Under the pieces are notes generated by a model, which was not told the origin of the DNA, ran no database searches, and was given only the letters and a program-made list of their open reading frames with translations. From assembly GCA_964645795.1 (NCBI GenBank), contig CAZYCL010000003.1, positions 188,290 to 252,289 on the forward strand: DNA of 64,000 bases, in the 5' to 3' direction. Both the position numbers and the translations under genes were made by a program. Below are positions 18,664 to 24,548 of this stretch, in pieces; the first letter of the stretch is position 1; each line of letters starts with the position of its first letter. This stretch comes from an uncultured Planctomycetales bacterium. Its GTDB lineage: Bacteria; Omnitrophota; Gorgyraeia; Gygaellales; Profunditerraquicolaceae.

Positions 18664-19989
18664 ATGGAAATAAAACAAAAATTAAGCCTGAAACGGCTGA
18701 TGGTCCCGCAGCTCAGCCACTCGCTTAAGATCCTTGAGCTCGCCCATACAGAGCTGGATACGCTTTTAAAAGCTGAGCTGCTTAACAATCCCTTCCTTGA
18801 AGAAGGTGCTTACGGCGGCTCAAAAGAGGCCTCTAGGTTGTCGAAAAATAAGCCTCCCTCCCCCTCTCTTACCCAGGATGAGATCGACTTTAGGCTTGAA
18901 TCAATGACTAAAAAGACCACTCTCCAGGACGTCCTCTTACGGCAGTTGGGGATGTTTACTCAAACCGAAGAAGAGCTTATGATCGGCCAGGAGATAATCG
19001 GCAATATCGATGAAAACGGCTACCTTAGGACATCTCTTGAAGAGCTATCGCTGTCTTTAAAGAACGTGCCTTTTAAAAAGCTTGAAGAGGTCCTGGGCCT
19101 GATCCAGCGCTTTGACCCTTCCGGGGTAGGCGCGCGCAGTATCTCGGAGTGCCTGCTTATACAACTGGAGAACGAAGACTCCACCGACCAAAACCTGCGG
19201 CTTATAGTAAAAGACCACCTTGATGACGTGGCTAAAAAGAATTACAAGGCTGTCGCTAAATCCCTGGGCTTGAGCCTCGAAGAATTGGAGCCCTTGCTGC
19301 ATAAGATACTTAAGCTTGACCCGAAGCCCGGAAGGAAGTTTCACCCGGCACAGACCCAGCAGGTGACCCCTGACATAGACTTCGAAGTCTCTGATGAAGG
19401 CGAGATAACTTTCAGCATAAATAACGAAGACTCCTCAAAGGTGAGCATTAATAAAGACTACAAAGACCTTCTTTCAAACAAAGAGATGGACGCCAAGACC
19501 AGGGAGTTCCTCAAGGAAAAGCTCCAGAACGCCATGAACCTGCTTAACGCCATATCCAGAAGGCACTCTACCCTAAGAAAGATCGCCCAGGCCCTGGTAG
19601 AGCTGCAGGCTGAAGCGATAAAGGACGGCCTGTCGTATCTTAAGCCGCTCTCTTTAAAAGAAGTCGCCCGAAAGCTCGAACTGCACGAATCTACGGTATG
19701 CCGCGCGGTAATGAATAAATACGCAAAGCTACCCTATGGGGTAGTGGCGATCAAAGAGTTCTTTCCCAGCGCAGTTTCAGGAGGAGAAGAACATCCGCAT
19801 TCGCCCAACTATGTAAAGAAACTCATCTTAGAAGCAATCAAAGCAGAAAATAAGAAGAAACCGTTGAGCGATTCACAGATATCAAGCCTGCTCTCCAAAG
19901 AGCATAAGCTCAAAGTCTGCCGCCGCACCATCGCCAAATACCGCGAAGAGATCAAGATCCTCAACTCCACCTACCGAAAAGAAAAATAA
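18664..19989 (+). CDS. rpoN: RNA polymerase sigma-54 factor RpoN
   Basis: 441 aa; region I (LxLxxxLxQSLxxL), core-binding and -12/-24 DNA-binding regions, C-terminal RpoN box ARRTIAKYRE. Confidence 0.85.
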   Translation: MEIKQKLSLKRLMVPQLSHSLKILELAHTELDTLLKAELLNNPFLEEGAYGGSKEASRLSKNKPPSPSLTQDEIDFRLESMTKKTTLQDVLLRQLGMFTQTEEELMIGQEIIGNIDENGYLRTSLEELSLSLKNVPFKKLEEVLGLIQRFDPSGVGARSISECLLIQLENEDSTDQNLRLIVKDHLDDVAKKNYKAVAKSLGLSLEELEPLLHKILKLDPKPGRKFHPAQTQQVTPDIDFEVSDEGEITFSINNEDSSKVSINKDYKDLLSNKEMDAKTREFLKEKLQNAMNLLNAISRRHSTLRKIAQALVELQAEAIKDGLSYLKPLSLKEVARKLELHESTVCRAVMNKYAKLPYGVVAIKEFFPSAVSGGEEHPHSPNYVKKLILEAIKAENKKKPLSDSQISSLLSKEHKLKVCRRTIAKYREEIKILNSTYRKEK

Positions 19990-19995
19990 AGAAAT

Positions 19996-20075
19996 AAAGG
20001 GGACGGTTCTATTTTTCTTCAGGGAAAATGCGGGAAAAATAGAACCGTTCCCTTTATTTTGGAACCGTCCCCTTT
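19996..20075. repeat. REP-like palindromic element (GGGGACGGTTC...GAACCGTCCCC family) acting as a bidirectional terminator between rpoN and the convergent operon
   Basis: aaaggggacggttctattttt ... aaaaatagaaccgttcccttt ... ggaaccgtcccc. Confidence 0.5.
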
Positions 20076-22493: not shown

Positions 22494-23667
22494 TTTCCGA
22501 ATAACTGGCGGGAATGAGTATAGTGAAGGCGCTGCCTTTACCGGGTGTGCTGTCTATGGAGATCTGGCCACCGTACTTATGGACTATCTCTTTGCTGATA
22601 GCCAAACCCAAACCTGTCCCCTTATCTATGCTCTTGGTGGTAAAAAACGGCTCAAATATCTTTTCTCTGATATCTTCAGGGATGCCGGTGCCGGTGTCCG
22701 AAAAGTGGACCCGCACAAACATGTCGTCCATGCTGGTAGAGATGCTCAGGGTCCCTCCGTTAGGCATGGCATCAATGGCGTTGCTGAGGATATTGGTGAC
22801 TACGTGGCTTATACCCAGATCAAGCAGCCTGGGGATCCCGGGCTGGAGCTCCTTATTGACGACTATCTGGGAAGTAAGCTTTCTGGCTACGCAGGTAAAC
22901 GCATCGTCGATCACCTGATGCAGGTCAATGTACTTTCTTACATGGGTGGCTTTGGAATTAAGAAGCCGCGAGAACTCAAGCAGGGATTTGGTAATATTGG
23001 CGATCCTGGCCAGCCCGCCCTTTACCTCCAACAGATACTCCCTTACCACCGGATTGTCGTCGAGCTGCCTGAGGATCATGTTGTTATAACGGATTATACC
23101 GTCAAGGGGGTTATTTATCTCATGGACGATGCCGGCGGCCAGCTTGCCCACCGAAGCGAACTTTTCCATGGTCTCTTTTTGCTTACGGATCTCCACGTAA
23201 TCCTGAAGCACGTCAATACTCAGGGCCGCATACTTGACAACGGTCACCGCCAACCTCAGGTCCTTCTCGTTAAAGGCCTCATCGCTAGACTTGTCCGCCA
23301 GGTTTATCAGGCCAAGCAAGCCCTTGACGGAGAATACGGGAATGGATATAAATGATTTGGAGCGGTAATGGCTGAAGCCGTTCTTGGAGAAGCGCCTGTC
23401 TTCATCGAGGTTCCTTACGAGAACGGGGCTGGCTGATGTAGCGACTTTTCCCGCTACCCCCTCCCCTATCCTCTTCTTCAGGCCCTTAATAGAGAGGTTA
23501 TTGGTATTGTGGAAAGCCTCCAGCACCAACTCCTGCTTTTGGTTATCAAAGATAAAGAGCGAGCCGCACTCGGCGTTAAGGGCGCTCATCATGTCCCTTA
23601 AGGCGTTGTTAAGGGTAAGCTTTATGAAGTTCTCAAGCTCCGGGGTATTAACGGCTGGTTCCTTCAA
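22486..23667 (-). CDS. Cytoplasmic sensor histidine kinase with N-terminal GAF domain (PrsK-like)
   Basis: 393 aa; GAF N-terminus, HisKA H-box VHEINNPL, HATPase_c N-box/G1/G2 (DTGTGIP...GTGLGLAISK); no TM segments. Confidence 0.75.
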   Translation of the reverse strand: MKEPAVNTPELENFIKLTLNNALRDMMSALNAECGSLFIFDNQKQELVLEAFHNTNNLSIKGLKKRIGEGVAGKVATSASPVLVRNLDEDRRFSKNGFSHYRSKSFISIPVFSVKGLLGLINLADKSSDEAFNEKDLRLAVTVVKYAALSIDVLQDYVEIRKQKETMEKFASVGKLAAGIVHEINNPLDGIIRYNNMILRQLDDNPVVREYLLEVKGGLARIANITKSLLEFSRLLNSKATHVRKYIDLHQVIDDAFTCVARKLTSQIVVNKELQPGIPRLLDLGISHVVTNILSNAIDAMPNGGTLSISTSMDDMFVRVHFSDTGTGIPEDIREKIFEPFFTTKSIDKGTGLGLAISKEIVHKYGGQISIDSTPGKGSAFTILIPASYSENA

Positions 23668-24548
23668 TTCTTGCCTTTCTGGGTGGATTGGGGTTTGTCA
23701 GCGGACTTAGGCTTATCCAATTCCTTTAGTATCACCTGAGAAAGCTTGGCCAGCTTTCCTTTGGGATAGTCGCTGATGATCCGCTTAAGGCAGTCCTTTG
23801 CTTTTTCCGTCTCCTTAAGGTCCCTCTTGTAAATAGTGGCCAGGCTCATAAGCACCGAATCCAGGCGCAGCTTGCCTTTGTAATCATCCAACACCTTCTC
23901 AAGGGCATCTGCCGCCGACTTATAGTCTTTTAGAGCCATATAAGCCTGCGCCGTAGACATATCCGTCCTGAAGGACAACGGCGTATTGGGGTATTTCTGA
24001 GACAGCTCCTTAAAATACAGCACCGCGTCCTGATAAGCGCTCATCATCTTATCCGGCTGGTACTTGGATTTGTAGTAGGCGGCTATATAGAAAGGCACGG
24101 TGAGACCCCGGGGGGTAGCGGGATAATCCCTCATGATGTTCTTGTACTGCTGAAGGGCGCGTTGCCACTGGTCGTCTATCTCGTAGGTCCTGCCCAAAAG
24201 GAAAACGGCCTCGGCGCAGATGACCGGCGAGCTCTTATACTTTCCGGTCATGGACTGCAAATAATTCCTGGCTTTCTGGTAATCCTTCTTCACCACATAA
24301 AGGTCGGCGATGGTAAAATCCGCATCCAGCGCCAGGCGGGTCTTGGAAAACTTCTTGGAAAAAGCCGAAAGCCTCGCCACTGTGCGCGACAGCTCCATGG
24401 GCGGGGTGGCTTCCGGGTTCATGAATATCCTGCCCGCTGCCTTCTTGGTATACCAGTACTTCCTTTCTATGGAATACTGGTCATTCATGCACCCTGCCAA
24501 CAGGAAGCTGAAACCGATAAGCGTGAATAAAAGTATGTGTCTTCTCAT
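23664..24548 (-). CDS. TPR-repeat lipoprotein (PrsT-like); start ATG 24548 (MRRHILLFTLIGFSFLLAGC lipobox), the ORF-track upstream extension is unlikely
   Basis: Signal peptide + LAGC lipobox; several TPR-like repeats (..QKARNYLQSM.., ..YQDAVLYFKEL.., ..AYMALKDYKSAADALEKVL..). Confidence 0.6.
   Translation of the reverse strand: MRRHILLFTLIGFSFLLAGCMNDQYSIERKYWYTKKAAGRIFMNPEATPPMELSRTVARLSAFSKKFSKTRLALDADFTIADLYVVKKDYQKARNYLQSMTGKYKSSPVICAEAVFLLGRTYEIDDQWQRALQQYKNIMRDYPATPRGLTVPFYIAAYYKSKYQPDKMMSAYQDAVLYFKELSQKYPNTPLSFRTDMSTAQAYMALKDYKSAADALEKVLDDYKGKLRLDSVLMSLATIYKRDLKETEKAKDCLKRIISDYPKGKLAKLSQVILKELDKPKSADKPQSTQKGKN

Follow-up and report, generated by a model that had tools for sequence, protein, structure and literature searches.

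Control of PEP-CTERM genes by sigma-54 has been a prediction since 2006, with demonstrations in a few Proteobacteria; the regulators and DNA sites used outside this phylum were left open. In the available text of Haft et al. (2006; PMC1569441), a sigma-54 motif (motif 2) and a second motif (motif 1, the PEP-CTERM box) are described before PEP-CTERM genes and linked to the proteins PrsK, PrsR, and PrsT. The PEP-CTERM box has 17 nucleotides (nt) ending in TTTACA, lies on average 63 nt (standard deviation 10.6) upstream of the sigma-54 motif, and is reported there for Proteobacteria only, with further regulators and DNA motifs left to be found. RpoN1-dependent transcription of pepA from a mapped start site was described in Aquincola tertiaricarbonis (PMC9850573), and DVUA0057 of Desulfovibrio vulgaris was found by DNA-affinity-purified-chip (DAP-chip) at the promoters of PEP-CTERM genes (PMC3333781). 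No paper linking Omnitrophota with PEP-CTERM or exosortase was found in our literature search. Here, we analyzed a 64-kb stretch of contig CAZYCL010000003.1 from a member of Omnitrophota, herein referred to as the window, together with related loci; all evidence comes from sequence and comparison of these. The window encodes sigma-54 (rpoN), an adjacent NtrC-type regulatory module, and an operon in which a priming sugar transferase gene and PEP-CTERM genes follow a -24/-12 element. These parts probably form a sigma-54 cassette that is specific to this lineage of Candidatus Omnitrophota and would switch on the sugar-transferase/PEP-CTERM operon. Coordinates of the features are given in Table 1.

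The sequence TGGCATgggaaTTGCT (40652-40637, minus strand) is the only match to TGGCAY-N5-TTGCW without mismatches on both strands of the window. To be called a sigma-54 promoter, an element had to contain GG and GC exactly 10 nt apart in TGGCAC-N5-TTGCW, upstream of a gene and in the same orientation, and this arrangement was found here. The element is located in the 407-nt gap before the sugar transferase gene, in the fitting orientation, 144-160 nt upstream of the ATG at 40493. The preliminary description of this DNA, made from the sequence alone, had reported a near-consensus -24/-12 element about 150 bp upstream of the sugar transferase; it can now be placed at 40653-40637. With a sigma-54 weight matrix that approximates a published compilation, the site reaches 18.6 bits, against 13.8 for the runner-up in the window. 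The best scores in 200 shuffles of the window had a 95th percentile of 17.3 and a maximum of 19.7. Taken alone, the site is modestly above chance and is suggestive rather than proven. No site above 13.8 bits, and none in an upstream gap, was found for the regulator operon, the acyltransferase-ligase gene, the exopolysaccharide (EPS) genes, or PEP-CTERM genes 6-8. Neither the 133-nt leader nor the rest of the window has a match to a structured RNA in Rfam at gathering thresholds.

Related loci were recruited by scanning species-representative genomes with the sugar transferase and metagenomes with the regulator. In the first scan, the nine loci closest to the sugar transferase all belong to metagenome-assembled genomes of Candidatus Omnitrophota (L001-L008 and L060, 52-72% identity); loci L081-L084 were added by the second. 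The regulator scan brought in 80 metagenome loci, the majority of which (L085-L160) carry generic NtrC-family genes of other organisms with 45-50% identity; these have no locus markers and served solely as an outgroup. The gap between epsI and the cargo genes is contained in ten loci (L001-L008, L060, and L083). TTGGCAY-N5-nTGCT was found in this same gap, pointing into the downstream genes, in all ten of them. In an alignment of the ten upstream regions, the flanking intergenic DNA shows a mean column identity of 44%, and the invariant columns are TTGGCA and GCT of the promoter. On the comparative level, this conservation is decisive evidence for the predicted -24/-12 site. In L083 the promoter is followed first by a PEP-CTERM gene and not by a sugar transferase gene, and thus the conserved target would be the exosortase cargo operon as such.

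A putative upstream activating sequence was found further upstream of the promoter. The preliminary description had pointed to 80-150 bp upstream as the place to look for an enhancer, and an 18-bp dyad was found, which in the window starts 143 nt and ends (3' end) 125 nt upstream of TGGCA. The dyad TGTTK-N8-MAACA starts 137-161 nt upstream of TGGCA in nine of the ten relatives (3' end at 119-143 nt), and L007 has a variant with N10 spacing at -184. The consensus derived from 15 sites is TGTTGA-(A/T-rich N6)-TCAACA. Dyads with at most one mismatch occur about once per 20-kb locus (background 0.05-0.06 per kb), and one such dyad is the copy upstream of the promoter in 8 of the 9 genome loci. No further pairing of a -24/-12 site with a dyad was seen in any locus examined.

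About 48 nt upstream of the dyad, an imperfect second copy of its left arm and flank was found, and a direct repeat TTGTTGCTAA is present at 40844-40835 and 40796-40787. Within 190 nt there are five TGTTG in a single orientation, as compared with about 0.45 per 300 nt (both orientations) in the whole window. The second copy is possibly an auxiliary binding site. A conserved block, YAA-N4-TTG, is present between enhancer and promoter in the alignment of the ten upstream regions; the reverse complement TAaCAAcatgTTA of positions 40713-40701 can be read as a match to the IHF consensus, WATCAANNNNTTR, with one mismatch. This block overlaps a weak sigma-70-like site, TTAACA-N18-TAGAAT at 40714-40685 (10 of 12 matches), located 35 nt upstream of the -24/-12 element. 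An A-tract is also present between dyad and promoter, and the IHF-like block and the A-tract may bend the DNA there.

The sigma factor and its candidate activator are encoded side by side. RpoN contains the Pfam domains AID, CBD, and DBD as well as the RpoN box CRRTIAKYRE, and is thus a member of the sigma-54 family. As noted in the preliminary description, rpoN is adjacent to the regulator operon and convergent with it (18664-19989 on the plus strand, facing the minus-strand operon); the same convergence was found in L002, L003, L005, L006, and L083. All genes named in that description were recovered at their positions, with the described domains, in Pfam and NCBIfam scans. Five minus-strand genes, for a membrane protein, a TPR lipoprotein, a histidine kinase, a response regulator, and a PocR-GAF protein, overlap by 4-8 nt and are therefore considered one operon. 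The regulator has the receiver residues DD/D/T/K, the Walker A motif GESGTGK, and the sigma-54-contacting GAFTGA loop, which make it a bacterial enhancer-binding protein. Its closest solved relatives are of the NtrC family, 4l4u and 1ny5 (Aquifex aeolicus NtrC1), with 334-354 bits. The helix LGI(N/D)RTTLYKKM of its helix-turn-helix (HTH) domain is conserved in 11 of 11 aligned Omnitrophota orthologues, and other NtrC-family proteins differ in it.

The kinase belongs to the HisKA class of two-component kinases. Its sole hydrophobic window sits within the GAF fold, so no membrane segment is predicted, which agrees with its earlier description as a soluble GAF protein. The additional PocR-GAF sensor proposed at the same time has Pfam matches to both PocR and GAF_2. 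This is a stand-alone protein with neither an output domain nor a membrane segment. The start of its gene overlaps the regulator stop by 4 nt, and the two genes are translationally coupled. The gene was found in L002, L006, L007, L008, L060, L081, and L082 and is missing in L003, L005, and L083. With low confidence, the protein may be an accessory modulator acting through protein-protein contact with the kinase or the activator.

The TPR protein has its true start at ATG 24548, giving MRRHILLFTLIGFSFLLAGC with the lipobox LLAGC, in agreement with the end coordinate in the preliminary description. The membrane protein has about seven hydrophobic segments and no match in Pfam or NCBIfam even at E = 10. 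A HMMER search of 1.84 billion representative proteins yielded 363 representative relatives, which with few exceptions stand alone and are about 290 aa long. In rare cases the protein is fused, to TPR repeats in P0133 and to a Glycos_transf_4 priming transferase in P0114, which suggests a role in envelope polysaccharide assembly. The gene is syntenic in nine related loci (L002-L008, L060, and L083), and L082 has the kinase, regulator, and PocR-GAF genes without the TPR and membrane protein genes. On account of this gene content in L082, the YbgF-like TPR, and the rare fusions, the lipoprotein and the membrane protein are treated here as co-transcribed envelope or assembly partners, which is more likely than a part in signalling. 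A "split PrsK" composed of the membrane protein and the soluble kinase was also considered and was ruled out by the stand-alone form of the relatives; none of the 150 matches listed is as long as PrsK (~680 aa) and aligns with the membrane protein at its N-terminus.

Upstream of the regulator operon, the window has a consensus sigma-70 promoter. Identical TTGACA/TATACT hexamers precede the homologous operon in the distant relatives L004 (13080), L006 (6119), L008 (10419), L082 (353), and L084 (111). In L004, L006, L008, and L082 a perfect dyad follows the -10 hexamer at a distance of 10-27 nt, and in L084 the dyad lies 37 nt before the -35 hexamer. A regulator site on its own promoter is a classic signature of autoregulation, and the dyads in these five relatives imply that the operon would be autoregulated there. 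Because the same dyad stands beside the regulator operon's promoter in the five relatives, it can be tied to the adjacent activator. In a single case, L003, a further dyad copy TGTTTCAATTTTACAACA (16941-16958) precedes rpoN at 33-50 nt from its start codon, which hints that the activator perhaps also acts on rpoN in this genome.

The gene order shared by the related loci is exosortase, EpsI, promoter, sugar transferase and PEP-CTERM genes, membrane protein, TPR lipoprotein, kinase, regulator, and, in part of the loci, PocR-GAF. The module directly follows the cargo genes in L002-L008, L060, L082, and L083, and L081 begins inside the module. In L003 (14068-15588) and L005 (15343-16857), the slot of the kinase and the regulator is occupied by a single activator with GAF-AAA+-HTH_8 architecture, and no kinase, receiver domain, or PocR-GAF gene was found in these two loci. 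The N-terminal GAF domain of this activator is 43-47% identical to that of the window kinase. This domain swap provides good comparative evidence that the pathway takes its primary input from the GAF domain, which would be the sensor upstream of the activator. We infer that both the GAF and the PocR domains sense ligands. The best solved match for both GAF domains is a weak one to 5w10 (33-46 bits), from which no ligand identity was derived. Within this one clade, one- and two-component input designs appear to be interchangeable.

The predicted operon begins with a sugar transferase that itself carries an exosortase-type signal. The order of its parts is a signal peptide, a short variable linker, an internal PEP-CTERM domain HAPEPTTLLLMLGGLGSMVVRFAQK, and the catalytic domain. 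The PEP-CTERM segment is encoded at about 40194-40298 (residues ~70-95), and excised residues 66-100 match TIGR02595 with 23.6 bits against a cut-off of 16. Among 80 loci from many phyla that were inspected, APEP was found in 8 of the 9 Omnitrophota homologues of the transferase and was absent from the 71 other homologues. Such a topology fits exosortase recognition, and the enzyme may be cut by or docked to the exosortase. Our literature search found no description of an internal PEP-CTERM domain in a priming sugar transferase. A search of a protein collection with the N-terminal 107 residues gave no matches, the word index used being insensitive to a short variable segment.

All eight PEP-CTERM proteins encoded downstream (33977-39611) match TIGR02595 with 21.7-28.3 bits against the cut-off of 16. 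The only sizeable gap in this array, of 150 nt, follows gene 5; it is occupied by two terminator-like hairpins and has no -24/-12 site. Genes 6-8 may be transcribed by read-through, form a separate unit, or be expressed at a lower level. In the preliminary description, the promoter and sugar transferase were said to head all eight PEP-CTERM genes. The promoter does precede the transferase and these genes, and the operon may end after the fifth (hairpins at 35972-35880).

From these features, the following circuit can be proposed. The sigma-70 promoter at 25502-25474 would drive all five genes of the regulator operon, from the membrane protein to the PocR-GAF protein. The cytoplasmic kinase would perceive an intracellular ligand through its GAF domain and phosphorylate the receiver domain of the activator. 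From the helical linker between the receiver and AAA+ domains and from what is known of NtrC1 and DctD, we presume that the receiver would repress AAA+ assembly until phosphorylated. The activated regulator would assemble on the dyad TGTTGCTAAATAGCTACA (40795-40778), possibly aided by the partial repeat about 48 nt upstream, and the DNA would loop over the A/T-rich stretch with its IHF-like site. ATP hydrolysis by the regulator would then open the complex of the sigma-54 holoenzyme at TGGCAT-N5-TTGCT (40652-40637), with sigma-54 supplied by the convergent neighbouring rpoN. The predicted transcript would start near 40626 and cover the sugar transferase gene together with five or more of the PEP-CTERM genes, perhaps all eight. 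The PocR-GAF protein could be a second ligand input that modulates the kinase or the activator by contact.

The chain from an NtrC-type activator through sigma-54 to the sugar-transferase/PEP-CTERM operon had been outlined in the preliminary description, and it gains support from the conserved promoter, the dyad, the dyad at the regulator promoter in relatives, and the synteny. The adjacent regulator is the candidate binder of the dyad because of this synteny, the dyads at the regulator-operon promoter in relatives, and the invariant HTH helix. Several observations weigh against the proposed circuit. In the window, the regulator is 18 kb from the promoter, with the opposite-strand ABC/LolA block and the acyltransferase-ligase gene in between; the right arm of the window dyad is mismatched (CTACA instead of MAACA); and a dyad search of the window revealed no copy at the regulator-operon promoter or at rpoN. 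L001 has the promoter and the dyad without a module within 10 kb. The module also varies in composition, L006 having no kinase and L082 neither the TPR nor the membrane protein gene, the genome may encode further sigma-54 activators elsewhere, the promoter weight matrix is approximate, and the related loci are phylogenetically non-independent. The promoter might be real and activated by another enhancer-binding protein, while the adjacent module controls another target or itself. The distance of the module behind opposite-strand genes, its own promoter without a dyad, the lone promoter and dyad of L001, and the possible further activators all favor such an arrangement. It is nevertheless unlikely, since in ten related loci the module follows the same promoter within a few kb, five have the same dyad at the module's sigma-70 promoter, conservation of the dyad goes together with an invariant HTH helix, and no other pairing of a -24/-12 site or dyad was seen in the loci examined.

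That the -24/-12 match is fortuitous, with read-through of the exosortase/epsI operon or the sigma-70-like site at 40714-40685 serving the cargo genes, is scarcely tenable. In its favor, a few of the 200 shuffles equalled or exceeded the score of the site, the sigma-70-like site matches at 10 of 12 positions, and the stretch from epsI to the promoter has no predicted terminator. Against this, the -24/-12 element is kept at the same place in all ten relatives amid diverged DNA, its spacing to the dyad is constant, the ten aligned regions show no conservation of the sigma-70-like hexamers, and rpoN and an activator gene are linked to the locus. A further alternative, that the module is an orthologous PrsK/PrsR/PrsT set acting on the published PEP-CTERM box and hence a known system in another genome, would explain the shared protein classes beside an exosortase/EPS cluster (a TPR lipoprotein, a kinase, and a sigma-54-dependent NtrC-type regulator) and the sigma-54 promoter found before PEP-CTERM genes in both cases (PMC1569441). 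The regulator reaches as much as 405.9 bits with the PrsR model TIGR02915, against a cut-off of 502.6 and a higher score, 481.6, with the AtoC model. The kinase scores 105 against a cut-off of 300 with the PrsK model TIGR02916, matching only profile positions 410-679 (the kinase core), and the TPR protein 30.9 against 312 with the PrsT model TIGR02917 (899 positions). As all three curated cut-offs are missed, the module is, by these profile comparisons, not orthologous to PrsK/PrsR/PrsT. Moreover, the kinase has no membrane domain, and the neighbouring membrane protein, with its 363 stand-alone relatives, is no detached N-terminal domain of PrsK. The putative enhancer, an 18-bp dyad TGTTGA-N6-TCAACA with its 3' end 119-143 nt from TGGCA and its whole extent some 120-145 nt from the -24 element, is unlike the PEP-CTERM box, here compared by its description in the text of Haft et al., as a 17-nt TTTACA-ending motif some 63 nt away that this text reports from Proteobacteria only. 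Identity with the described system is thus very unlikely. In the preliminary description, the module was said to mirror PrsT/PrsK/PrsR, which holds for analogy and position and fails for family membership. The lineage-specific cassette remains the probable reading.

Table 1. Features of the sigma-54 cassette, its predicted target operon, and neighbouring genes in the 64-kb window.
Feature	Position	Strand	Details
rpoN (sigma-54)	18664-19989	+	TIGR02395 381 bits vs cut-off 277; complete
PocR+GAF protein	20083-21093	-	PocR 84.9, GAF_2 67.7 bits; last operon gene
NtrC-family response regulator	21090-22493	-	Pfam REC, Sigma54_activat, AAA_lid_14, HTH_8
GAF-HisKA-HATPase_c histidine kinase	22486-23667	-	HisKA 36.9, HATPase_c 96.5 bits; H-box HEINNPL
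TPR lipoprotein (YbgF/BamD-like TPR)	23664-24548	-	294 aa; TIGR02795 87.1 vs cut-off 90.1
Multi-pass membrane protein	24545-25483	-	~290 aa, probable start ATG 25435; first operon gene
Consensus sigma-70 promoter TTGACA-N17-TATACT	25474-25502	-	11 of 12 matches and extended TG; precedes regulator operon
LolA-like protein, MacB/FtsX-type permease, ABC ATPase	28455-31157	+	
Two genes of unassigned family	31141-33860	+	behind the LolA/MacB/ABC genes
PEP-CTERM genes 6-8	33977-35815	-	TIGR02595 matches
Two terminator-like hairpins	35880-35972	-	14-pair stem, T-rich tail; GGCGCTCG...CGGGCGCC then TTTTCTT
PEP-CTERM genes 1-5	35966-39611	-	TIGR02595 above cut-off at each C-terminus; gaps of at most 25 nt
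Priming polyprenyl glycosylphosphotransferase (sugar transferase)	39624-40493	-	289 aa; TIGR03025 280 bits on residues 98-289
Predicted sigma-54 promoter TTGGCATGGGAATTGCT	40637-40653	-	GG 40651-40650, GC 40639-40638; predicted start near 40626
YAA-N4-TTG block	40701-40713	-	conserved columns in alignment of 10 upstream regions; between enhancer and promoter
Putative upstream activating sequence, dyad TGTTGCTAAATAGCTACA	40778-40795	-	family consensus TGTTGA-N6-TCAACA, 18 bp
Imperfect second copy of enhancer left arm and flank GATTGCAACTTGTTGCTAATAATAG	40829-40853	-	~48 nt upstream of dyad
EpsI	40901-41521	-	TIGR02914 105.5 vs cut-off 42.8; adjoins promoter region on upstream side
Exosortase	41525-42340	-	generic TIGR02602 169.7 vs 105.6

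According to the open reading frames and the family scans, a single large exosortase/exopolysaccharide locus spans about 63980 to 33977 on the minus strand. It includes export, chain-length, tyrosine-kinase, and ATPase genes, a flippase gene, several glycosyltransferase genes of the XrtA-system type, and an O-antigen-ligase-like gene. The exosortase scores 186.7 with the XrtA model TIGR03109, below its cut-off of 208, and satisfies the generic model; it is thus an unclassified exosortase near XrtA. Inside the EPS biosynthesis cluster, a protein of 1065 aa with glycoside hydrolase family 123 domains is encoded (44152-47349, minus strand). The plus-strand LolA/ABC block (28455-33860) separates the cargo operon from the regulator module and is missing from the more compact related loci. 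Between this block and the regulator operon lies a gene for a tri-domain protein of 915 aa (25562-28309, minus strand), with a FeeM-like N-acyltransferase, an AMP-dependent ligase, and a phosphopantetheine carrier domain. Its N-acyltransferase part is of an exosortase-system-associated type (TIGR03694, 188.7 bits vs the cut-off of 112), and the protein may make an acylated small molecule tied to the exosortase system.

At the other end of the window, a run of small open reading frames (~7139-16302, plus strand) is located between dinB (5773-6936) and an unassigned gene. It includes genes for a DnaD-like protein (7192-7866), for a packaging ATPase of the FtsK/HerA type (10715-11353), which matches phrog_2666 with 109 bits, and for a coat protein with a PM2-type double jelly roll (12301-13152; Pfam P2_N and P2_C), all on the plus strand. 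This region of about 9 kb is probably a corticovirus-like element integrated in an Omnitrophota genome.

A wider reading can be offered tentatively, as possible but rather doubtful: sigma-54 in this Omnitrophota clade may have become part of a compact, dedicated cassette of rpoN, one activator, its own enhancer, and an autoregulatory site that mainly gates exosortase cargo, with an input that switches freely between two- and one-component designs and a first target gene for a sugar transferase carrying an exosortase signal. This would couple polysaccharide priming to protein sorting, both physically and transcriptionally. For a candidate phylum without cultured members, the present analysis adds a conserved cis architecture, consisting of predicted enhancer, bend, -24/-12 element, and autoregulatory site, and a sensor module, not orthologous to the Prs set, that has cytoplasmic GAF and PocR domains as its predicted inputs. 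It also adds a natural experiment in which two- and one-component inputs are swapped at one locus. Omnitrophota are thought to be ultra-small, often host-dependent cells, and the cassette offers a route toward the triggers of their surface-matrix and adhesion programmes.

Among described systems, the Prs system is the one most readily compared with the window. Both have a kinase, an NtrC-type activator with a Fis-type HTH, and a TPR lipoprotein near exosortase/EPS genes, as well as a GG-N10-GC promoter with an upstream activator site before PEP-CTERM genes. The window kinase is soluble with a GAF input, whereas PrsK has a multi-pass membrane domain; the TPR protein is YbgF-like and has 294 aa, whereas the PrsT model has 899 positions. 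In addition, the window has a PocR-GAF protein and an rpoN gene linked to the locus. The predicted target is one polycistronic operon headed by a sugar transferase, in contrast to the many single-gene operons of the Prs system, and the phylum, Omnitrophota, is outside the range given for the published motif in the available text of Haft et al. (2006). The pepA gene of Aquincola and the targets of DVUA0057 give experimental precedent for PEP-CTERM genes that are transcribed from -24/-12 promoters and bound by a dedicated NtrC-family regulator. The regulators of Aquincola and Desulfovibrio belong to the PrsR family; the cis-elements of the window differ from theirs, and its system is known from sequence.

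Other likenesses concern single parts of the circuit. Aquifex aeolicus NtrC1 (1ny5, 4l4u) has the same REC-AAA+-HTH architecture as the window regulator and differs from it in target, DNA site, and partner kinase. NtrC binds the sigma-70 promoters glnAp1 and glnL for negative autoregulation, and the dyad just after the own-operon sigma-70 promoter in L004, L006, L008, and L082 is similar; unlike that case, the window copy has no such site, and repression in the relatives would follow from position alone. The activators of L003 and L005 share the GAF-AAA+-HTH architecture of one-component activators of the NifA/FhlA/NorR type, whereas in the window the GAF domain is on a separate kinase predicted to signal by phosphotransfer. 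Judged by these comparisons, the predicted circuit would work like the Proteobacterial ones without belonging to their families and is a lineage-specific version of a known circuit.

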